Below, one piece after another: positions 27,607 to 37,972 of a stretch of 64,000 nt of DNA; the first letter of the stretch is position 1; every line of letters begins with the position of its first letter. The notes below the pieces were generated by a model. The model was not told where the DNA came from and ran no database searches. It saw only the letters and a program-made list of their open reading frames with translations. The translations under genes were made by a program, and so were the position numbers. This DNA comes from an uncultured cyanobacterium (GTDB lineage Bacteria > Cyanobacteriota > Cyanobacteriia > Cyanobacteriales > Nostocaceae). The DNA is taken from assembly GCA_963706595.1 (NCBI GenBank), contig OY970166.1, positions 1,664,001-1,728,000 on the forward strand, read 5' to 3'.

Positions 27607-28209
27607 TTATGAGCCTAAATTATTAATTAATTCTTCTAATGCTAAATTCTTTGTATCTTCAGGTAGATAATCAAAGACTTTCTTCAAAAGTTCTGGAGAA
27701 GCATTTTGAACAAACCAGTCTTCACTAGGATTATCTTGAATATTAAAAAAATACTTTAATCGTTTTTCTATAGCTTCTCTATCTGCTTTATCTAATTGTC
27801 CAATTCGATTTAACCAATTTTCTGATGAATCTTTAAAGCAATTAGCATCAACAGTACATATTTGATGAATTAAAGCATAAGAATTTTTATCAAGACTATT
27901 TCTACTTGTAGAGTTAATTGGATATGTGGTTGGTAAACCATTAAATGTTGTTTTTGAAGTCAGAGGAATCACAGAAAAAGTTGCTCTATATCCAAACTCA
28001 TCTTGAAATTGATCACTTGTCCAGATTATGTAAGGATGTTTTCCTCTAAAAACCCTGCTTGAATTAATATCTTCACTACAAGTTTGACATTCTACTTCAC
28101 CTGGCTCATCTAAATTATAAATATGAACATGACCCAGTTTACAACGAAGAGATACCCTATAGGGATTAATCCAATAAATCCAACCCTGTTTAGGTCTTTG
28201 TCCAGCCAC
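27607..28209 (-). CDS. PemK/MazF-like toxin with inserted Zn-ribbon-like segment
   Basis: PKQGWIYWI, KHPYII, VIPLTS, SYALIHQICTVD, RIGQLD...IEKRL; C-x2-GH...C-x2-C insert. Confidence 0.75.
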   Translation of the reverse strand: MAGQRPKQGWIYWINPYRVSLRCKLGHVHIYNLDEPGEVECQTCSEDINSSRVFRGKHPYIIWTSDQFQDEFGYRATFSVIPLTSKTTFNGLPTTYPINSTSRNSLDKNSYALIHQICTVDANCFKDSSENWLNRIGQLDKADREAIEKRLKYFFNIQDNPSEDWFVQNASPELLKKVFDYLPEDTKNLALEELINNLGS

Positions 28210-28210
28210 T

Positions 28211-28690
28211 TTACAACCCTAATTCACTAACTAATTTTTCTCTTTCTGCCTGTAAATTAAGTTTAACTTTTTCTTCTGGGCGATGGTTATTTTTTGCTTC
28301 TAGCATTGGAGCAGTGTTATATACATACTCTAATAACTGATTCAGTTTATCTGAACCAGCCCACTCTCTGCGAATATTATCCAGCACAAACTTAATACTG
28401 AGAGGTATGTCTAAATCATCTGCCTGAGCAGCTTGATTCACAGGTTTAATATATGTTGCATTATACTGAGATTCTTGAATAATCTCTTTCCCATTCATTT
28501 GATTTAAAGCAGCATCTATACTCTCATTCCAGGGTCCAAATTGATAATAACGCCAATCTAGATCAGTCAGTTGCTTTCCTGTCCACTTAACAGAGTAAAG
28601 ATCAGCTAAATACAAAAACTTAATCAGCTGTGTTTTTGTAATATACCCTTTTGTCGCGTAGACAAAATATTTTATGAGTTTATCCAACAT
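28211..28690 (-). CDS. Panacea (DUF4065/SocA-like) antitoxin
   Basis: KTQLIKFLYLAD...W.YYQFGPW motif; ends 1 bp before the toxin start. Confidence 0.75.
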   Translation of the reverse strand: MLDKLIKYFVYATKGYITKTQLIKFLYLADLYSVKWTGKQLTDLDWRYYQFGPWNESIDAALNQMNGKEIIQESQYNATYIKPVNQAAQADDLDIPLSIKFVLDNIRREWAGSDKLNQLLEYVYNTAPMLEAKNNHRPEEKVKLNLQAEREKLVSELGL

Positions 28691-30950: not shown

Positions 30951-31220
30951 ATGACAAAAACCCTAGAAGCCGTCCAATCTGCTGTTAACTCCGGGACTAC
31001 AACTCTTGATGAAGCTATCTTAGAATCTATTGTAGAAGCTCGTCAAACCTGCGACGTAGACGGAGACAATTCGGCTAACTGTGCTGTAGCTTGGGATATC
31101 GTCGAAGAATTACAAGCAGAAAAAGCGCACCAACAGCAAGCAAAACATCGCAAAACTGCTTTAGAAAGCTACTGTGAAACCCATCCAGAAGCCATAGAAT
31201 GCTTAATCTACGATGTTTAA
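30951..31220 (+). CDS. cp12: Calvin cycle regulatory protein CP12
   Basis: C-x9-C, AWDIVEEL, YC-x8-CLIYD. Confidence 0.9.
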   Translation: MTKTLEAVQSAVNSGTTTLDEAILESIVEARQTCDVDGDNSANCAVAWDIVEELQAEKAHQQQAKHRKTALESYCETHPEAIECLIYDV

Positions 31221-32035
31221 CTTGTTCGTAAATCAGCAATGGCTGATTGCGTCATTTGTTTAATCGCATCTAAATCAGGTGGTGGTGTATCACTTTCCAT
31301 TCCTAACCATAAAAGATACTCGATATTTCCAGCCGGGCCAGTAATCGGCGACCAAGTTAAACCTTTGTATTTCCATCCTAATTGACAAGCCACTTGCAAC
31401 ACTTGGAAAATAGCATCAGCTTGGTCATGAGGATCGCGAACAACGCCTTTTTTGCCAACACGGGATTTTCCCACTTCAAACTGTGGCTTAACTAGCAAGA
31501 CTGCATCCCTGGGAGATTTAGTTAATCGCCACAAAGCCGGCAAAATCTTAGTTAAGGAAATAAACGATACATCCACCACCGCCAAATCAGGTATCTCGTC
31601 ACCTTCACTATACAAATCTTCGGGTGTGAGATTACGTAAATTGGTACGTTCTCTTAAAATCACCCGTGGATCATTTCTTAAACCCCAGTCAACTTGTCCA
31701 TAACCGACATCAATGCCGTAAACTTGTTTTGCTCCCGCTTGTAGCAAGCAATCGGTAAAACCGCCTGTAGAAATTCCCCCATCTAAACAAATGCGTCCGG
31801 TGGTGGAGATAGGGAAAGCATCCAAAGCCTTTATCAGTTTCTCACCTCCGCGAGACACAAAGCGCGATCGCTCTTTCACCTTAATTTGAGCCGCAATATC
31901 AACTTCTGTCCCAGCCTTATCCACCACCTGTTGATTAACAGTCACTTCTCCCGCTTGAATTAAGCGTTGTGCTAAGGCGCGAGAAGTGCATAAATTTAAA
32001 TCTACTAATAATGTATCGAGTCGCTGCTTCACCAA
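31217..32035 (-). CDS. tlyA: TlyA-family rRNA 2'-O-methyltransferase
   Basis: S4 domain RLD, VSRGGEKL, DGGISTGGFTD, DVSFISL, KPQFE, GNIEY. Confidence 0.95.
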   Translation of the reverse strand: MVKQRLDTLLVDLNLCTSRALAQRLIQAGEVTVNQQVVDKAGTEVDIAAQIKVKERSRFVSRGGEKLIKALDAFPISTTGRICLDGGISTGGFTDCLLQAGAKQVYGIDVGYGQVDWGLRNDPRVILRERTNLRNLTPEDLYSEGDEIPDLAVVDVSFISLTKILPALWRLTKSPRDAVLLVKPQFEVGKSRVGKKGVVRDPHDQADAIFQVLQVACQLGWKYKGLTWSPITGPAGNIEYLLWLGMESDTPPPDLDAIKQMTQSAIADLRTS

Positions 32036-32058
32036 TTAACTTGATTCTCCTGGTAATA
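31778..32058. repeat. 281-bp direct repeat, copy 1 (tlyA 5' end plus last codons of the DUF29 gene)
   Basis: Aligns without gaps to 37280-37560 with about 15 mismatches by manual count. Confidence 0.95.
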
Positions 32059-32207
32059 AGCTGAACAAACCTGATTTTGCACAACATTTTAAATAAAACT
32101 CTTGTGGGATGGGCATACTATGGCTAACGCCACGCTACGCGAACGACAAGCTCAGTACAAGTCTTGCCCGTCCAAATTGTGCGGCATTTAGCTAATTAAT
32201 GCACAGT

Positions 32208-35200
32208 TTAAGATTCCCATGTAATTGTATAAGAATCTAACGAACCTTTACCCTTACCTTGTCGCCAACAATTATCTGCTTCCCATGCGCCGTTTTCTGT
32301 CTTGCGTTTGCGGCTGCGGACGGTGAGGGTGTTATTTTCCAACTTCATTAGGTGATATTGCCAAGGTTCGGCGGTAGTGAGTTCGTGGGTGGGTGCGCCG
32401 AATGTTCCCGCGCAGATGCGGAATAGTCCTCGTTCTGCGTCGTATTCATTAAAGCCTTTTTGGGCTTGGTGGACGTGTCCGTGGAGGAAGAAGCGGAAAC
32501 CTGCGACGGCTAACTGTTCCATGAAACTTTGGTCTTTGATGCGGTCATCCCAGGCGCTATCTAGGGGATGATGCCATACTGCTATTTTGATGCAGTTTGT
32601 ATATTCTTGCTGGCGGCGAATTTTTGTGAGGGCGTTGCTGAGTGTATTCATATTAATGCTGGCACGGGATTTGTAATGATGATCCAATTGCCAAGCGGAG
32701 TTTAACCCTAGAATGAGCAGGTTTTGGTCGGGGAAATGGTCGAGGGTGTATTGCTGGTCATAGTCTAGAGGATAGGGTTGGTTTTTGATAGTTTGGTAGA
32801 AGTTGCTGAAGTGTTCAAAGCGTTGATTGTATTTTTCTTCATCTCGCACACGAATGACACTGGCACTTTCTTCTATATATTCACCTTGCTTCAGTTCTCC
32901 CTCATAGTCGTCACGGTCAATTAATTGGTAAGCTTTTTTTGCTAGTGACCAATTGAGGTCATGATTACCGGGAACGATGATAATTTGCTCAGGTTGGAGG
33001 GCGAAATCTTGGCGGAGTTCATCAAAAAATTGTTTGGCTGCTTCGTATTCTGCGGGGGTTGATTTGTTGGCGATGTCGCCGGAGAGAATGAGGGCATCAA
33101 GTTGAGGAATTTCGAGTTCATTTCGCAAGTCGGTTGCTAGTTGGTTTGACCAAAGTTTAGCTTGGTCAGGTGTGCCAAAGTGCAGGTCTGAGAGGTGGAG
33201 AATGTGCATTATGGAAGTTTTAATAAGCTGGGGGTTTGGTTTAGTAATTGGTTGAGCAAGAGAGTTGTAGTATTTACAGTTTTCTTGTATCGCTTCAAGT
33301 GCTTGTAGTACATCACTCGCATTATCTATATTATTTTCATCTTCGAGCAATTGAATTAACCCAGGAATCGCTGCCTCTGATTTGATTTCTCCCAGGGCTG
33401 ATGCCGCCCTCCTACGCACATCGGAGTTTTCATCTTCGAGCCATTTAATTAACCCAGGAATCGCTGCCTCTGATTTGATTTTTCCCAGGGCTGATGCCGC
33501 AAAATAACGCACAGATAATTCTTCATCTTCGAGCAATTGAATTAACCCAGGAATCGCTGCCTCTGATTTGATTTCTCCCAGGGCTGATGCCGCACTAAAA
33601 CGCACAGATAATTCTTCATCTTCGAGCAATTGAATTAACCCAGGAATCGCTGCCTCTGATTTGATTTTTCCCAGGGCTGATGCCGCACTAAAACGCACAT
33701 CGGAGTTTTCATCTTCAAGCAATTGAATTAACCCAGGAATCGCTGCCTCTGATTTGATTCCTCCCAGGGCTGATGCCGCACTAAAACGCACAGATAAGTC
33801 TTCATGTTCGAGCAATTGAATTAACCCAGGAATCGCTGCCTCTGATTTGATTTTTCCCAGGGCTGATGCCGCACTAGAACGCACATCGGAGTTTTCATGT
33901 TCGAGCAATTGAATTAACCCAGGAATCGCTGCCTCTGATTTGATGTCTCCCAGGGCTGATGCCGCACTAGAACGCACAGAGGAGTTTTCATCTTCGAGCA
34001 ATTGAATTAACCCAGGAATCGCTGCCTCTGATTTGATGTCTCCCAGGGCTGATGCCGCACTAGAACGCACAGAGGAGTTTTCATCTTCGAGCAATTGAAT
34101 TAACTCAGGAATCGCTGCCTCTGATTTGATGTCTCCCAGGGCTGATGCCGCCCTAGAACGCACAGGGGAGTTTTCATCTTCGAGGAATTGAATTAACCCA
34201 GGAATCGCTGCCTCTGATTTGATTTTTCCCAGGGCTGATGCCGCATAATAACGCACATCGGAGTTTTCATGTTCGAGCAATTGAATTAACCCAGGAATCG
34301 CTGCCTCTGATTTGATTTCTCCCAGGGCTAATGCCGCCCTAAAACGCACATCGGAGTTTTCATCTTCAAGCAATTGAATTAACCCAGGAATCGCTGCCTC
34401 TGATTTGATTCCTCCCAGGGCTGATGCCGCACTAGAACGCACATCGGAGTTTTCATCTTCAAGCAATTGAATTAACCCAGGAATCGCTGCCTCTGATTTG
34501 ATGTCTCTCAGGGCTGATGCCGCATAATAATGCACAGAGGAGTTTTCATGTTCGAGCAATTGAATTAACCCAGGAATCGCTGCCTCTGATTTGATGTCTC
34601 CCAGGGCTGATGCCGCCCTCATACGCACATCGGAGTTTTCATCTTCAAGCAATTGAATTAACCCAGGAACCGCTGCCTCTAATTTGATGTCTCCCAGGGC
34701 TGATGCCGCCCTCATACGCACATCGGAGTTTTCATCTTCAAGCAATTGAATTAACCCAGGAATCGCTGCCTCTGATTTGATTTTTACCAGGGCATCTGCC
34801 GCACTCCTACGCACATCGGAGACTTGATGTTCGAGTAATTTAATTAACCCAGGAATCGCTTTGTTAGATTTTGTTAAACCTAAAAGCGTAATTTTAAATA
34901 ATAGAGGAATTTCTAACCCAGCAACTAAATCAACTGTTTGCTGTTGGAATTCTGGCTTTACAGCACCTGCTAACCTTGCGCCTAACTGCCAATCTACCTC
35001 TAAGGCTAAGTTCACCACTTGCACCGCCTGCGCCCCATCATCCACCAATTCCAGCATCAATTTCAGGGGTTCAGTCCATTTTAAATAATTTAAATACTCT
35101 CGCTGGAGACGTTTATCACCGAGGTTTGGTAATTGCTTGAGCAAACATTCGGCGGTGTAATAGTCCTGAATTAGTTGGTGGCGAAATTCAATTTGGTCAT

Positions 35201-36347
35201 TTGCCCCAACTTGAATTAAGTGATGGTTGAGTAAGTCTTGCAGCCAGTTTAAAGCTCTGTCACGGGGTCTATCAAATTTCTCAGATTGCAAAAACTGGGT
35301 TAAAACTTCCTCGGCTTTTGACCTGGATATGGCAACATTTAATTCTGTCAGCTTATCCCCTGTGGTCATGTAGAATGCCAGATGTTCTAATAATCGAGTC
35401 CACCACCGCCGAGACTCATCTGTAACTGGGATATCTTGGCGATATTGACGCTCATAGGTTTGGGTAAACTGGCGAAAAACTAAACCCAAGTTCGGCGGGA
35501 TGTCTCCTGTGGCTTGAAACAATGAACACAGCATCAACAGTAGCAACGGCGTTTCTCCAAACTCCCGCAACCTGTCGCCTAAGTTCTGCAACATCTGCTC
35601 ACCCTGTTCTGGCAAATAGGCGCGGACAAACTGCTGCATCTGTTCTGCTGTCAGGGGTTGCATTTCCAGCTTCTTGGTAATACCCAAATCGCCCCCCACG
35701 CCTAAATCCCGCGTGGTGAATATCATCGGCGTGGTTTTTTCGTAGTCTTGCCGGAATTTATATAAATTTTGTCGGGCTTTTTCTGAGGGTAATTCGTTGA
35801 TACCATCTACCAACAGGAGGAATTGCCCGTCAAATAACAGTTTTTCTATGGTTGTAGTCTCCAACAGTAGGCGATGGCGCATTAAGAAATCCCGAATTAA
35901 ATCTAGGACTGAGGTTTGGTAATAGCGCAACTCTACTAGCACGGGGATTTGACCTAACCCCCCAACCCCCTTCCCTGCGAGGGAAGGGGGAGAATTAACT
36001 CCCCTCTCCGTTTCGGGGAGGGGTTGGGGGAGGGGTTTCTCCGCTTCCTCTAACAACAACCGCACCAACGCCGTTGATTTCCCCGAACCTGGCCGCCCTA
36101 CCAGTAAGACGTGTTCTTGAGCATATTTCCGCAACCCTGCCAATACATCTAAACGCTCAGTTTTCTCCTGGGTTTCGCTCCGTTCCTCTTTGGTGGGCAA
36201 TACCGTCTCCACCATAAAATTTAGCATTAGGGGCGATCGCTTATGCTCAACTCGCTGCTGTCCCACTACATCCGTCAGCGTGTAAGCATTCCACCATTGG
36301 GCATAATCATTGCTGAGTGATTCGAGATAGTCATTCCAGATGCTCAT
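32208..36347 (-). CDS. NACHT NTPase-HEAT repeat-metallophosphoesterase fusion (NLR/STAND-like)
   Basis: Walker A GRPGSGKST, Walker B LLLVDGINE, IFTTR, TPLLL, FRHQLIQDYY; 16 HEAT repeats; HLSDLH, GDIA, PGNHD, HH and HGHVH motifs. Confidence 0.92.
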   Translation of the reverse strand: MSIWNDYLESLSNDYAQWWNAYTLTDVVGQQRVEHKRSPLMLNFMVETVLPTKEERSETQEKTERLDVLAGLRKYAQEHVLLVGRPGSGKSTALVRLLLEEAEKPLPQPLPETERGVNSPPSLAGKGVGGLGQIPVLVELRYYQTSVLDLIRDFLMRHRLLLETTTIEKLLFDGQFLLLVDGINELPSEKARQNLYKFRQDYEKTTPMIFTTRDLGVGGDLGITKKLEMQPLTAEQMQQFVRAYLPEQGEQMLQNLGDRLREFGETPLLLLMLCSLFQATGDIPPNLGLVFRQFTQTYERQYRQDIPVTDESRRWWTRLLEHLAFYMTTGDKLTELNVAISRSKAEEVLTQFLQSEKFDRPRDRALNWLQDLLNHHLIQVGANDQIEFRHQLIQDYYTAECLLKQLPNLGDKRLQREYLNYLKWTEPLKLMLELVDDGAQAVQVVNLALEVDWQLGARLAGAVKPEFQQQTVDLVAGLEIPLLFKITLLGLTKSNKAIPGLIKLLEHQVSDVRRSAADALVKIKSEAAIPGLIQLLEDENSDVRMRAASALGDIKLEAAVPGLIQLLEDENSDVRMRAASALGDIKSEAAIPGLIQLLEHENSSVHYYAASALRDIKSEAAIPGLIQLLEDENSDVRSSAASALGGIKSEAAIPGLIQLLEDENSDVRFRAALALGEIKSEAAIPGLIQLLEHENSDVRYYAASALGKIKSEAAIPGLIQFLEDENSPVRSRAASALGDIKSEAAIPELIQLLEDENSSVRSSAASALGDIKSEAAIPGLIQLLEDENSSVRSSAASALGDIKSEAAIPGLIQLLEHENSDVRSSAASALGKIKSEAAIPGLIQLLEHEDLSVRFSAASALGGIKSEAAIPGLIQLLEDENSDVRFSAASALGKIKSEAAIPGLIQLLEDEELSVRFSAASALGEIKSEAAIPGLIQLLEDEELSVRYFAASALGKIKSEAAIPGLIKWLEDENSDVRRRAASALGEIKSEAAIPGLIQLLEDENNIDNASDVLQALEAIQENCKYYNSLAQPITKPNPQLIKTSIMHILHLSDLHFGTPDQAKLWSNQLATDLRNELEIPQLDALILSGDIANKSTPAEYEAAKQFFDELRQDFALQPEQIIIVPGNHDLNWSLAKKAYQLIDRDDYEGELKQGEYIEESASVIRVRDEEKYNQRFEHFSNFYQTIKNQPYPLDYDQQYTLDHFPDQNLLILGLNSAWQLDHHYKSRASINMNTLSNALTKIRRQQEYTNCIKIAVWHHPLDSAWDDRIKDQSFMEQLAVAGFRFFLHGHVHQAQKGFNEYDAERGLFRICAGTFGAPTHELTTAEPWQYHLMKLENNTLTVRSRKRKTENGAWEADNCWRQGKGKGSLDSYTITWES
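33334..34860 (-). repeat. Tandem array of 93-bp coding repeats (31-aa HEAT/PBS-like)
   Basis: 16 full units plus a partial one, nearly identical in DNA. Confidence 0.97.
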
Positions 36348-36549
36348 GGTGTGTGGAATAGTGAGATGTTGGCGTTAGGGAAAGATTAAATGTTGCTTGC
36401 CTAACCCCTGGTAACGGTGTATTTTTGACAAGGTTTAACTTACTGAGTGAAATTGTAACTTATTATCTGAGTTTAGATTTTATTAAATAAGAATCAGCAC
36501 TTTAGAGAGGCTCAGACCCTCGATTTTTTTGAGAAGTCGGGGATCTTTT

Positions 36550-36695
36550 CTGACTTTTCACGTCATGTGGAAAAGCTAACGCGAAACCTAACCCCCCAAC
36601 CCCCTTCCCTACCAGGGAATGGGGAGAATTCAAAGCCTCTCTCCTTGCAGGAGAGAGGTTTGGAGAGAGGTTTTCTAGATACCGTGAAAAGTTAG
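36550..36695. mobile_element. 146-bp MITE with 10-bp target duplication
   Basis: TIR CTGACTTTTCACG/CGTGAAAAGTTAG; GGGATCTTTT at 36540-36549 and 36696-36705. Confidence 0.8.
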
Positions 36696-36761
36696 GGGAT
36701 CTTTTTTGTTCTCGAACTACGAATTATGCTAATTTCATCTCAGTGAACTTTGCTATCACCA

Positions 36762-37262
36762 ATGTCTAACCTATTACCAACTGAATCCCAGCCTAAATCT
36801 CTCGATGATTTTGAATTAGACTTGCTCAAACAGGAATATTTTTTTCTGCAAAATACGATTGAAGACTATAACAAGCAGATTTGGGTGATAAAAGCCCTGG
36901 GAATTACTGGGACTGGGGGAGTCTTAGCATTGATGTTACAGCAAAAACCCATCGCCAGTGCGATCGCCTTAATAGGTTGCTCTATTCCCTTATTTTTCTG
37001 GATTCTCGAAAGTCAATGGAAACACTTTCAGCGCGGTTTCTATCCCCGTGTTGCCGAAATTGAGTATATTCTCGCCAATACATACAACTTGAAAAGCCCT
37101 GGTATCTATGGCAGTTGGTCGAAAACCCACAAGCGTCAGCACATTTCTAAACGTCAAGGCTACCTCTGGGATGGTCTGCTCAATCGTAGTGTTTTCATGA
37201 GCTACATCCTAGAGATTATCTTTCTGTTGATCATAGCGGCGATCGCACCTAATATTTTGTAA
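36762..37262 (+). CDS. Hypothetical membrane protein (about 3 TM)
   Basis: Amphipathic N-terminal helix followed by hydrophobic segments; ATG at 36762. Confidence 0.75.
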   Translation: MSNLLPTESQPKSLDDFELDLLKQEYFFLQNTIEDYNKQIWVIKALGITGTGGVLALMLQQKPIASAIALIGCSIPLFFWILESQWKHFQRGFYPRVAEIEYILANTYNLKSPGIYGSWSKTHKRQHISKRQGYLWDGLLNRSVFMSYILEIIFLLIIAAIAPNIL

Positions 37263-37279
37263 TAATTACTCTCGGTGCG

Positions 37280-37537
37280 CCCATCTAAACAAATGCGTCC
37301 GGTTGTGGAGATAGGGAACACATCCAAAGCCTTTACCAGTTTCTCACCTCCGCGAGACACAAAGCGCGATCGCTCTTTAATCTTAATTTGAGCCGCAACA
37401 TCAACTTCCGTCCCAGCCTTATCCACCACCTGCTGATTAACAGTCACCTCTCCCGCTTGAATTAAGCGCTGTGCTAAAGCGCGAGAAGGACATAAATTTA
37501 AATCTACTAATAATGTATCGAGTCGCTGCTTCACCAA
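37280..37537 (-). pseudogene. tlyA: Truncated 5' copy of tlyA (direct repeat copy 2, which extends to 37560)
   Basis: First 86 codons nearly identical to tlyA; homology stops at ICLDG. Confidence 0.9.
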
Positions 37538-37972
37538 TTAACTTGACTCTCCTGGTAATATCAAATCTAAAGCAAAATGAATAATTTCTTCCCGATTTAC
37601 CAACTTCTCTAATTCTTCTGGCTGATAACGACCTTCTTCCACTTCCAAAGAAGCCTGATCAATAGCATTTAAATAAGCTTCTTCTAAAGTTTCCCATAAT
37701 TCCGAGCGTGTGAGGTAATAACCTCCAGCTTTACGGCGCTTATTTTCTCGCTGAATTTCCCGAACAGAATTGCGAATAGACACTTCCCAAGAGCGAGTGC
37801 TGCGATGTTCCGCTTTTTGTTTAATTAAATGTAATAAAAGAATCACCGCGTAACTACGAATCGTTTTAATAATGTCATTTCGGCTCATTTCTGCCAATTC
37901 TTCCACGATAACCAACGCCCCTGTAACATCGCCTTTAATGAGTAAGTCTTTCAGAGTTAGTAATTCTTCCAT
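37538..37972 (-). CDS. DUF29-family protein
   Basis: IVEELAEMSRND, ILLLHLIK, RSWEVSIRNS, EAYLNA. Confidence 0.8.
   Translation of the reverse strand: MEELLTLKDLLIKGDVTGALVIVEELAEMSRNDIIKTIRSYAVILLLHLIKQKAEHRSTRSWEVSIRNSVREIQRENKRRKAGGYYLTRSELWETLEEAYLNAIDQASLEVEEGRYQPEELEKLVNREEIIHFALDLILPGESS

Follow-up and report, generated by a model that had tools for sequence, protein, structure and literature searches.

A candidate NLR-like system with a C-terminal calcineurin-like phosphoesterase and a conserved membrane-protein neighbour at a cyanobacterial recombination hotspot

The window analysed here (the whole stretch of 64,000 nt, to which all coordinates refer) encodes a 1379-aa protein that joins a NACHT NTPase, an array of HEAT repeats and a calcineurin-like metallophosphoesterase (MPE) domain, head-to-head with a small conserved membrane protein (TM). 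Taking together the domain anatomy, the intact motifs, the variability of the repeats, the polymorphism of the hotspot and the asymmetric linkage of the two genes, we hold with moderate confidence that the locus encodes a conflict system of the NLR-like, bacterial NACHT type in a single chain, most probably directed against phage, with a nucleotide-hydrolysing output. What appears to be new, from the loci compared, is that the TM family tracks one MPE clade through at least six architectures. Nucleotide-degrading outputs of NLR-like proteins draw much current interest in bacterial immunity, and this locus is a compact two-gene case whose natural controls lie in the same genus: strains with the empty site, one copy in decay, and differing numbers of repeats.

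Results

The 1379-aa protein combines a NACHT NTPase, a homogenised HEAT array and a C-terminal phosphoesterase

The two genes and the parts of the larger one are as follows.

32208 to 36347, minus strand: NLR-like protein, 1379 aa (ORF translation and Pfam), laid out as a short conserved N-terminal region, NACHT NTPase, HEAT array and C-terminal metallophosphoesterase
35607 to 36113, minus strand: NACHT NTPase core, about aa 79-247 (Pfam NACHT and orthologue alignment)
35949 to 36036, unstranded: small dispersed palindromic repeat, in frame inside the NACHT ORF, where it encodes about aa 105-133, immediately C-terminal to the Walker A helix
33279 to 34859, minus strand: 17 HEAT repeats of 31 aa, aa 497-1023, strongly homogenised with few hypervariable positions
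32328 to 33230, minus strand: calcineurin-like metallophosphoesterase domain, aa 1040-1340, with five metal/catalytic motifs intact (Pfam, alignment and AF2)
36762 to 37262, plus strand: conserved membrane protein TM, 166 aa from ATG, with three hydrophobic helices (homologue starts and AF2 model)

STAND/NACHT NTPases are defined by a Walker A motif (GxxxxGKS/T), a Walker B motif (hhhhDG.[DN]E) and a TxR sensor motif that follows. Read directly from the sequence, Walker A is GRPGSGKST (aa 84-92) and Walker B is LLLVDGINE (aa 177-185), and both are conserved, together with FTTRD, across 15 aligned orthologues. The Pfam NACHT model scored 28.1 bits against the whole protein and 31.8 bits against the N-terminal 480 aa alone (gathering cut-off 26.7), with coverage limited to profile positions 59-166 because the Walker A helix is followed by a 29-aa in-frame insert; in orthologues that lack it, the match covered profile positions 3-166 at 35.1-46.5 bits (L032: 46.5; L065: 35.6; L068: 35.1). 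The length at this insert site varies from 0 to ~70 aa among the 15 orthologues, whose alignment spans total lengths of 1050-1681 aa. The insert comes from the palindromic repeat, which has 24 BLAST matches in its own genome and a 45-nt core that recurs at 36586-36630, and it might impair this particular copy.

Beyond the NTPase, in the C-terminal sensor position of an NLR-like architecture, the protein carries 17 near-identical HEAT repeats of 31 aa, the first at aa 497 (Pfam HEAT_2: 709.7 bits; HEAT_PBS: 316.7 bits), encoded by a tandem DNA repeat at 33334-34860 (16.4 copies of 93 nt, 91% matches). Variation between repeats clusters at repeat positions 11, 13-15, 18, 19 and 26. Pairwise comparison of the 17 repeats revealed 0 synonymous vs. 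115, 104, 89, 85 and 60 nonsynonymous differences at codons 18, 26, 19, 15 and 11, respectively, and 103 synonymous vs. 953 nonsynonymous over all repeat codons (unnormalised counts). With nonsynonymous variation focused on a few repeat positions, the array looks like a sensor, in agreement with an earlier sequence-only reading of this DNA that had given it this role. NCBIfam models of CpcE (245.7 bits; cut-off 330), NblB (179.1 bits; cut-off 300) and CpcF (partial match) also matched the repeats, and since the scores against phycobilin-lyase and NblB models are good, a host ligand is conceivable.

At the C-terminus, Pfam Metallophos matched aa 1047-1294 (46.3 bits; cut-off 21.5), and the DxH, GD, GNHD, HH and GHxH motifs are invariant in all 36 aligned relatives; the five motifs, and a fold that agrees by Foldseek, place the domain in the calcineurin-like metallophosphoesterase superfamily. 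These scores and intact motifs match what the sequence-only reading had described, a NACHT, a HEAT array and a complete C-terminal phosphoesterase within 1379 aa, and the anatomy bears out its proposal of an NLR-like sensor/NTPase/effector order with the effector at the C-terminus. That reading had also taken an internal Met at MHILHLSDLH as the mark of a recent fusion. We reject a recent fusion because the same NACHT-HEAT-MPE architecture is common to several cyanobacterial orders (loci titled Nostoc, Anabaena, Calothrix, Fischerella, Moorena, Microcoleus and Coleofasciculaceae); moreover, the Met before ILHLSDLH is not conserved among orthologues.

The phosphoesterase resembles nucleotide phosphodiesterases and domains of named or candidate anti-phage proteins

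When the AF2 model of the MPE (pLDDT 89.4) was searched with Foldseek, the top match was YydB in the YydD-YydB integrative model (E 1.2e-15), next came Rv0805, GpdQ and Lmo2642 (E 2e-10 to 3e-9), and Mre11 and SbcD were weaker (E ~4e-7 to 2e-6). As modelled, the MPE fold is nearer to nucleotide phosphodiesterases than to Mre11/SbcD. The best match, Bacillus YydB (PDB 9a6c chain B, an integrative model and not an experimental structure; TM-score 0.69, query-normalised; 18% identity), is without a STAND NTPase fusion, unlike the MPE here. At the sequence level, full-length similarity to Mre11/SbcD was not found with NCBIfam, in which two SbcD models scored 34.1 and 21.9 bits (cut-offs 77.65 and 450) and covered residues 1047-1135 only. 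Searched against PDB sequences with phmmer, the MPE domain had weak matches only (best E 8.9e-4). SbcD is among the MPE matches in both the sequence and the fold search, and Mre11 is likewise listed.

Among defence models, PADLOC returned PDC-S60 (1.6e-26) and PDLC00736, described as 'Effector, Endonuclease' (2.1e-21; 74.5 bits), and NCBIfam returned the DS9_1 anti-phage phosphoesterase (2.4e-27; 95.9 bits, far under its cut-off of 420) and DS8 (3.8e-25; 87.8 bits, far under its cut-off of 790), both of these NCBIfam matches being at domain level only. The effector role that the sequence-only reading had given the MPE gains from its resemblance to domains of named or candidate anti-phage proteins (PDC-S60, DS9_1 and DS8), at NCBIfam scores far below cut-off. 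DNA is also a conceivable target because one PADLOC model carries the label 'Endonuclease'. The MPE clade occurs mostly in records titled cyanobacteria and Myxococcota.

The two genes form one alternative content of a recombination hotspot

The following features surround the two genes.

31217 to 32035, minus strand: intact gene for a TlyA-like S4 + FtsJ methyltransferase, hotspot flank
31778 to 32058, unstranded: direct-repeat copy A, spanning the first 258 nt of the intact tlyA-like gene and 23 nt ahead of it
32059 to 32212, unstranded: junction filler built of small dispersed repeats
36348 to 36761, unstranded: divergent intergenic region that holds small dispersed repeats and, at ~36550-36695, an inverted repeat of 40 nt
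37202 to 37537, minus strand: truncated tlyA ORF
37280 to 37560, unstranded: direct-repeat copy B, an orphan tlyA 5' fragment

As the sequence-only reading had it, the 1379-aa ORF (minus strand) and the TM ORF (plus strand) stand head-to-head, with a 402-nt spacer, and they are the sole genes of an inserted cassette. A duplicated tlyA 5' end flanks this cassette as a 281-nt direct repeat (31778-32058 and 37280-37560; 95% identical), only two non-nested ORFs of at least 60 aa lie within it, and in two same-genus genomes the site is empty. The intact tlyA-like gene now follows the NLR gene immediately, in the same orientation, and in G002-type relatives the place of the junction filler is taken by 51 nt of native sequence from upstream of tlyA.

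Comparison of 11 same-genus genomes revealed four different contents of the hotspot between tlyA and apc/glnA: the cassette at the same site in six (G000, G001, G002, G006, G009 and G010), an empty site in two (G003 and G008), a CHASE2-cyclase block in two (G004 and G005), and a Z1-domain protein in one (G007; PADLOC Helicase_II match 1e-96). By this comparison the cassette is one of the alternative contents of a recombination hotspot, and its presence and absence upheld the earlier view of an accessory insertion rather than core synteny. In G001 the cassette copy is decayed, with the NLR gene broken into ORFs of 617 aa and 113 aa; gene decay is common in dispensable genes.

Repeat copy A is closest to cassette-bearing G002 (9 mismatches in 281 nt) and copy B to empty-site G003 (12 mismatches in 281 nt), and at the 15 sites where the copies differ, A agrees with G002 at 12 and B with G003 at 10. 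The long direct repeat is explained by this difference in ancestry. Judged from these 15 variable sites, the cassette seems to have entered this genome from a cassette-bearing relative through one homologous and one illegitimate join, which would have duplicated the tlyA 5' end. A self-mobile island was considered and rejected, since the two repeat copies differ in ancestry and there is no recombinase: neither cassette ORF has a recombinase domain in Pfam, and no integrase or transposase with att-type ends was found. In a related strain with the G002-type junction, RNA-run contigs (X3, X9 and X10, from two studies) join tlyA to the MPE-coding 3' end; these contigs leave out the HEAT, NACHT and TM parts, and their presence is no proof of transcription.

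The membrane protein follows one phosphoesterase clade, with asymmetric linkage

The longest TM ORF (36750 to 37262, plus strand) gives 170 aa from TTG, and homologues start at an ATG four codons in, at 36762. Three helices were recognised by manual reading of the hydrophobic stretches and from the helices of the AF2 model. The protein is without a Pfam family; across 37 family members, matches at E ≤ 10 were sub-threshold noise only (DUF2516 in 6, 8xMP in 4, S_4TM in 1), and the papers listed in a literature search on 8xMP were unrelated to TM. Foldseek of the TM model against the PDB gave nothing at E ≤ 0.001, a wide VIA-align search gave generic helical hairpins or bundles only (best Z 10.0, under the chance level of ~13 for helical models), and relatives in the protein atlas were unnamed clusters of 153-162 aa only. 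Invariant motifs of the family are E..Y/EDYN and ESQWKHFQRGFY. Identity among TM proteins is 52-97% across orders, and ~65% where the partner MPE domains drop to 24-27%. Such conservation is unusually high for a defence gene. A search from a single remote family member returned one locus. Prediction of a complex between the MPE domain and TM scored 0.00 in both runs, which is evidence neither way.

An MPE-HMM match was present in 53 of 80 TM loci. Of the 48 with full context, meaning 6 kb or more on each side, 40 had such a match; the MPE ORF was no more than 1.5 kb from TM in 30 of the 48, and in 8 no MPE was found. By comparison, the complete 5.57-Mb genome that carries the locus has four MPE-HMM matches and one TM match. 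From the other side, the TM gene was present in 12 of 80 MPE loci, with no TM match in 68, and at least seven full NACHT-HEAT-MPE orthologues with adequate flanks are without it (no TM was found within the fetched flanks of L107, L108, L111, L117, L119, L121 and L122). The partners of TM comprise at least six architectures: NACHT-HEAT-MPE, MPE-NACHT-LRR, MPE-nSTAND5, MPE-SIR2, stand-alone MPE and WD40-Roc-MPE. Since an MPE is near TM in most full-context TM loci while TM is present in few MPE loci, TM appears to be an accessory dependent on this MPE clade and not an obligate partner; the linkage claimed in the sequence-only reading holds from the TM side but not from the MPE side.

Relation to known systems

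In the available text of the bacterial NACHT (bNACHT) study (10.1101/2022.07.19.500537), effectors include calcineurin-like phosphoesterases, some effectors stand at the extreme C-terminus after repeats, and bNACHT paralogues are abundant in cyanobacteria; by the literature, the architecture pointed out in the sequence-only reading is nothing exceptional. Like the bNACHT proteins, the protein here has its NACHT NTPase in the centre, superstructure-forming repeats as a C-terminal sensor (HEAT is among those named) and an enzyme fused on as effector. Unlike them, as far as that text goes, it has a calcineurin-type output and an architecture described for none of the tested bNACHTs, and the gene beside it encodes a conserved membrane protein.

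According to the accessible part of its description (10.64898/2026.01.15.699771), a Calcineurin-CE domain acts in an abortive-infection system by converting dNDP to dNMP and splitting NAD+ into NMN and AMP. As in that PUA-Cal-HAD system, a calcineurin-like phosphoesterase occupies the effector position here; the sensor, though, is NACHT-HEAT and not PUA, and the neighbour is a membrane protein, with no HAD partner. The comparison with the Calcineurin-CE clade draws on this effector-position context and on the DS9_1 and DS8 matches, both far below cut-off. From its length and layout, we infer that NCBIfam DS9_1 is the PUA-Cal protein; our literature search found no paper on the DS-9 anti-phage phosphoesterase.

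For TM, the nearest relation in PADLOC is gene A of PDC-M50: TM (P0002; 18.4 bits, E 4.9e-4) and its cyanobacterial relatives (up to 26 bits, down to 2.1e-6) match PDC-M50A models weakly over nearly the full profile, as do 25 of 30 remote TM representatives at E ≤ 1e-3; PADLOC supplies no cut-off for these models. A remote TM relative adjoins a DUF3800 / PDC-S51 protein, not an MPE, and no paper naming PDC-M50 was found in the literature search. SLATT effectors, with two membrane helices, adjoin calcineurin-type phosphodiesterases in GTPase-centric conflict systems and were proposed to form a nucleotide-responsive pore (PMC7159879, in the portion available). The locus here likewise has a small membrane protein beside a calcineurin-superfamily phosphoesterase effector, but with three hydrophobic helices, not two, and the 37 TM family members gave no SLATT Pfam match at E ≤ 10, the only related match being S_4TM (0.082) in one member; a remote homology beyond the sensitivity of HMMs is conceivable.

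Discussion

Activation by oligomerisation is established for STAND/NLR proteins. We propose that the HEAT solenoid recognises a protein of the invader at its hypervariable positions and that, by analogy with those proteins, the NACHT NTPase would then be free to oligomerise and thereby cluster, and activate, the C-terminal phosphoesterase domains. The active MPE would then hydrolyse free nucleotides or cofactors (dNDP/dNTP, NAD+ or cyclic nucleotides), not DNA, and the infected cell would arrest, which would make this an abortive-infection system; a nucleotide substrate is suggested by the fold, which lies near nucleotide phosphodiesterases, and by the published activity of a Calcineurin-CE effector. 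Our best guess for TM is that it adds a further output or relay at the membrane, with a small molecule and not a partner-specific contact providing the coupling.

The same NLR-like logic would apply if the MPE were an Mre11/SbcD-type nuclease that degrades phage or host DNA once activated, a reading we think unlikely but worth serious attention. The 'Endonuclease' description of PDLC00736, the weak N-terminal SbcD matches in NCBIfam and the presence of SbcD and Mre11 in both the sequence and the fold match lists agree with it, but the SbcD matches span the first 85-90 residues only, Foldseek ranks Rv0805, GpdQ and Lmo2642 over Mre11/SbcD, and the same MPE clade is also fused to SIR2, which fits nucleotide/NAD chemistry. 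The related Calcineurin-CE effector, too, works on nucleotides in the part of the report available (10.64898/2026.01.15.699771). Much less credible is that TM serves as an immunity- or antitoxin-like inhibitor of leaky phosphoesterase activity. An obligatory inhibitor would be expected beside its enzyme, yet most MPE loci (68 of 80) have no TM match, and a TM family that keeps ~65% identity while MPE partners reach 24-27% is at odds with a co-evolving inhibitor interface; what speaks for such an inhibitor is how closely the MPE ORF adjoins TM in 30 of the 48 TM loci with full context.

Two further readings place the trigger elsewhere than in phage, and we regard both as improbable. In one, the locus has no part in immunity: the PBS-lyase-type HEAT array would sense phycobiliprotein or bilin state, the MPE would tune a cyclic-nucleotide or related signal and TM would belong to the signalling. 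The HEAT_PBS score, the partial CpcE, NblB and CpcF matches, an adjoining allophycocyanin-like gene and the high conservation of TM are consistent with this, as are cyanobacterial NACHT proteins with GUN4 photosynthesis-status sensors in the available text of 10.1101/2022.07.19.500537. However, members of one genus differ in having the cassette, its G001 copy is decayed, the repeat variation is almost wholly nonsynonymous, and the same MPE and TM pair is also combined with sensors of LRR, WD40 and TPR type and with SIR2. The adjacency to apc is positional, since the same hotspot holds alternative contents that include the restriction-like Z1 protein. Fungal NLR repeat domains are highly homogenised with few hypervariable positions, and the HEAT array is reminiscent of them; the protein could be an allorecognition or programmed-cell-death NLR of the multicellular filament, like fungal het-type systems, triggered by a non-self or damaged-self protein. 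The concentration of the MPE clade in records titled cyanobacteria and Myxococcota goes the same way, and such systems are tied to a multicellular habit in the available portion of PMC7159879. Against this, no sign of a polymorphic partner locus was seen, the matches at domain level point to anti-phage families or candidates, and the tested bacterial NACHT proteins protect against phage, as reported in the text available (10.1101/2022.07.19.500537).

The more useful lead is TM, a short, very conserved family without an assigned fold. Because it follows one phosphoesterase clade through at least six sensor/effector architectures, a single test would be interpretable for many systems. More speculatively, and rather doubtfully, TM may be an unrecognised, widely reused output module of calcineurin-type nucleotide-degrading effectors, a membrane channel or relay gated by the MPE product or by a depletion signature. 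If true, membrane collapse or cell-to-cell signalling would be added to nucleotide depletion. An output module would explain why TM needs an MPE while the MPE does without TM, why TM stays ~65% identical while its partners diverge to ~25%, and why distant PDC-M50A-like relatives sit beside other enzymes, e.g., DUF3800/PDC-S51. Nicastro et al. 2023 (NAR) is reportedly the defining paper of the Calcineurin-CE family; if it already describes the TM partnership, the finding shrinks to an ordinary further example.

A NACHT-HEAT-phosphoesterase protein encoded head-to-head with a membrane protein

The sequence-only reading had described a large NACHT-HEAT-metallophosphoesterase protein encoded head-to-head with a three-helix membrane protein (TM), and our ORF reading, Pfam matches and motifs confirm this arrangement. 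The starts of the two ORFs face each other across a spacer of ~400 nt:

32208..36347, minus strand, NLR-like ORF, 1379 aa
36750..37262, plus strand, TM ORF, 170 aa (actual start, the ATG at 36762)

Pfam divides the large protein into three parts, namely a NACHT domain, a HEAT array and a Metallophos domain. The NACHT match is low (28.1 bits; cut-off 26.7) because a 29-aa insert (~aa 105-133) lies right behind the Walker A helix. The DNA coding for this insert is a small, palindromic dispersed repeat that is in frame within the ORF (35949-36036) and whose 45-nt core has 24 matches in the genome. In orthologues this codon position holds differing inserts of 0 to ~70 aa, and those orthologues that are insert-free match the entire NACHT profile (35.1-46.5 bits). 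The Walker A (GRPGSGKST), Walker B (LLLVDGINE) and TTRD motifs are conserved among the orthologues, which range from 1050 to 1681 aa. A second copy of the repeat sits in the intergenic, divergent promoter region (36586-36630), and small palindromic dispersed repeats also occupy the cassette junction (32059-32212).

By analogy, the large protein is a new member of an already described NACHT class with calcineurin-like effectors, since a bacterial NACHT preprint (10.1101/2022.07.19.500537) lists calcineurin-like phosphoesterases among effectors, HEAT among sensors, and effectors also at the extreme C-terminus. The earlier view of the cassette as an NLR-like defence system appears reasonable from its sequence, whereas its mechanism, in which ligand binding by the HEAT array would oligomerise the NTPase and activate the C-terminal effector, is one that we infer. 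The recent fusion proposed at an internal Met was wrong.

The HEAT array resembles a sensor

The HEAT array gives very strong Pfam matches (HEAT_2, 709.7 bits; HEAT_PBS, 316.7 bits) and consists of 17 31-aa repeats; in the DNA these appear as a tandem array of 16.4 copies of a 93-nt unit, with 91% matches between copies. Comparison of the 17 repeats revealed that variation clusters at repeat positions 11, 13-15, 18, 19 and 26, and that the differences are nearly all nonsynonymous (103 synonymous vs 953 nonsynonymous pairwise differences, not site-normalised; codon 18: 0 vs 115), with one divergent end repeat adding 16 to many columns of these counts. A binding surface under diversifying pressure would produce such a pattern, in which otherwise homogenised repeats differ at a few positions, and to judge from it the array looks like a sensor.

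The phosphoesterase may act on nucleotides

The C-terminal calcineurin-like metallophosphoesterase domain (MPE; aa 1047-1294) scores 46.3 bits (cut-off 21.5), and its DxH, GD, GNHD, HH and GHxH motifs are invariant in 36/36 aligned relatives. By sequence it is only weakly alike to solved proteins (best E 8.9e-4). The top fold match of its AF2 model (pLDDT 89.4) was an integrative model of Bacillus YydB (E 1.2e-15), followed by the phosphodiesterases Rv0805, GpdQ and Lmo2642 (E 2e-10 to 3e-9), with Mre11 and SbcD (~4e-7 to 2e-6) well behind these three. Matches that are domain-level only place the MPE beside candidate or named anti-phage phosphoesterases, i.e., the PADLOC models PDC-S60 and "Effector, Endonuclease" and the NCBIfam models DS9_1 and DS8. 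In an abortive-infection system studied in a 2026 preprint (10.64898/2026.01.15.699771), a Calcineurin-CE effector was shown to turn dNDP into dNMP and to cleave NAD+. Taken together, the ranking of the fold matches and this activity favour nucleotides rather than DNA as the putative MPE substrate.

TM depends on the phosphoesterase, but not the reverse

The TM model is all-helical (mean pLDDT 82.9), and three hydrophobic helices are read from its hydrophobic stretches and the model. Pfam searches of TM and its relatives returned no family, and fold searches with the model found nothing specific. At E<=1e-3, the family comprises 266 matches, the named ones all cyanobacterial (52-97% identity), and its invariant motifs sit on segments flanking hydrophobic helices 1 and 2. 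A profile search extended this to 523 clusters of remote relatives at the same threshold; among 30 scanned, 25 matched the PADLOC model PDC-M50A and none a meaningful Pfam family (a single borderline DUF2270, 26.4 bits; cut-off 25). In one locus titled as a Bacteroidetes MAG (L103, 6001-7733), a 183-aa remote relative (PDC-M50A, 1.9e-9) overlaps the start of a DUF3800 protein matching PADLOC PDC-S51 (9.4e-112), which a second DUF3800 gene adjoins.

When 80 TM loci were scanned with an HMM of this MPE clade, 53 contained a match. Flanks of >=6 kb on either side of TM were available for 48 of the 80; 40 of these 48 had a match, and 30 of the 48 had the MPE ORF <=1.5 kb from the TM gene. The whole genome here holds four MPE-HMM matches and one TM gene. 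Partner architectures were diverse (NACHT-HEAT-MPE, MPE-NACHT-LRR, MPE-nSTAND5(-TPR), MPE-SIR2, stand-alone MPE and WD40-Roc-MPE, as well as operons of MPE-SIR2 / nSTAND1-WD40 / ... / TM), and TM identity stays at ~65% where the partner MPE falls to 24-27%. Conversely, among 80 MPE loci, whose titles include cyanobacteria, Myxococcota, Desulfobacterales, Acidobacteria, Clostridium and Dehalococcoidia, TM was clearly present in only 12, with a weak match in one more. Even full NACHT-HEAT-MPE orthologues with adequate flanks occur both with TM (n = 9; L104, L105, L106, L109, L113, L115, L120, L131, L166) and without it (at least 7; L107, L108, L111, L117, L119, L121, L122). Since MPE is common in TM loci and TM is rare in MPE loci, the dependence is one-way, of TM on MPE. 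The membrane partner of the earlier reading is therefore linked from its own side, but is an accessory.

Calcineurin-type phosphodiesterase effectors have been noted to occur in some cases with a 2TM SLATT gene (PMC7159879); TM has no match to SLATT profiles. A conserved TM accessory with one-way linkage was not found in the literature compared here, i.e., the two preprints cited above and PMC7159879.

Several loci showed other arrangements. The multi-gene variants lie on one strand (L040, 1-8554; also L038, L047, L078, L090), and in L038, L040 and L047 a tRNA_edit + cyclodipeptide-synthase-like protein is encoded between the nSTAND1-WD40 protein and TM. Records titled Myxococcota and Desulfobacterales carry the same MPE clade (35-54% identity) in large proteins without a TM gene (L128, L132 (titled Sorangium), L129, L140-L146, L149, L154-L161 and others). 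Two TM loci (L042, 5842-6813; L049, 2136-3203) instead have a divergently oriented gene for an iSTAND (inactive STAND) protein beside TM, and the retrieved sequence around them contained no MPE match.

The cassette occupies a variable site beside tlyA

An inserted cassette had been proposed, and this is borne out by a 281-nt direct repeat (31778-32058 and 37280-37560; 95% identical) and by empty sites in two same-genus genomes (G003, G008). The repeat comprises the first 258 nt of a TlyA-like S4+FtsJ methyltransferase gene and 23 nt upstream; one copy is part of the intact gene and its upstream sequence, and the other is an orphan fragment.

Contents of the site between tlyA and apc/glnA in 11 same-genus genomes (G000-G010)
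NACHT-HEAT-MPE + TM cassette: G000, G001, G002, G006, G009, G010
DUF29 gene alone (empty site): G003, G008
CHASE2 adenylate cyclase + FecR-like + small gene: G004 (L020, 3234-6507), G005 (L019, 5688-8854)
Z1-domain protein (PADLOC Helicase_II, 1e-96) + 154-aa ORF: G007 (L021, 4352-7018)

Among the four contents, cassette and DUF29 side occur together, with the duplication, only in G000. The repeat copies differ at 15 sites. A self-mobile element was rejected, as no recombinase was found in the cassette and the copies are nearest to different genomes. The copy of the intact gene is nearest to G002, which bears the cassette (9 of 281 positions mismatched), and the orphan copy to G003, where the site is empty (12 mismatched). 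The sequences point instead to allele replacement via inter-strain recombination, with one illegitimate join here. The G001 cassette is decayed (L015, 4500-7452), with an internal deletion of ~2 kb that splits the NLR gene into a 617-aa and a 113-aa ORF; its TM ORF is shortened to 125 aa.

Within 31217-32207, the intact tlyA-like gene immediately follows the NLR gene in the same orientation, and its native upstream region is now 5.5 kb off, behind the orphan fragment. Contigs from RNA libraries of a related strain connect tlyA with the MPE-coding end, so that read-through from the NLR gene into tlyA is possible.

On the minus strand at 27607-28690, a SocA/Panacea antitoxin ORF (159 aa; 37.9 bits) is directly followed by a PemK/MazF-like toxin ORF (200 aa; 42.6 bits, Pfam), in a stretch of ~33-36% GC (vs ~42-46% around). 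By sequence the two ORFs probably form a toxin-antitoxin pair, and their small island lies ~4 kb away from the cassette.
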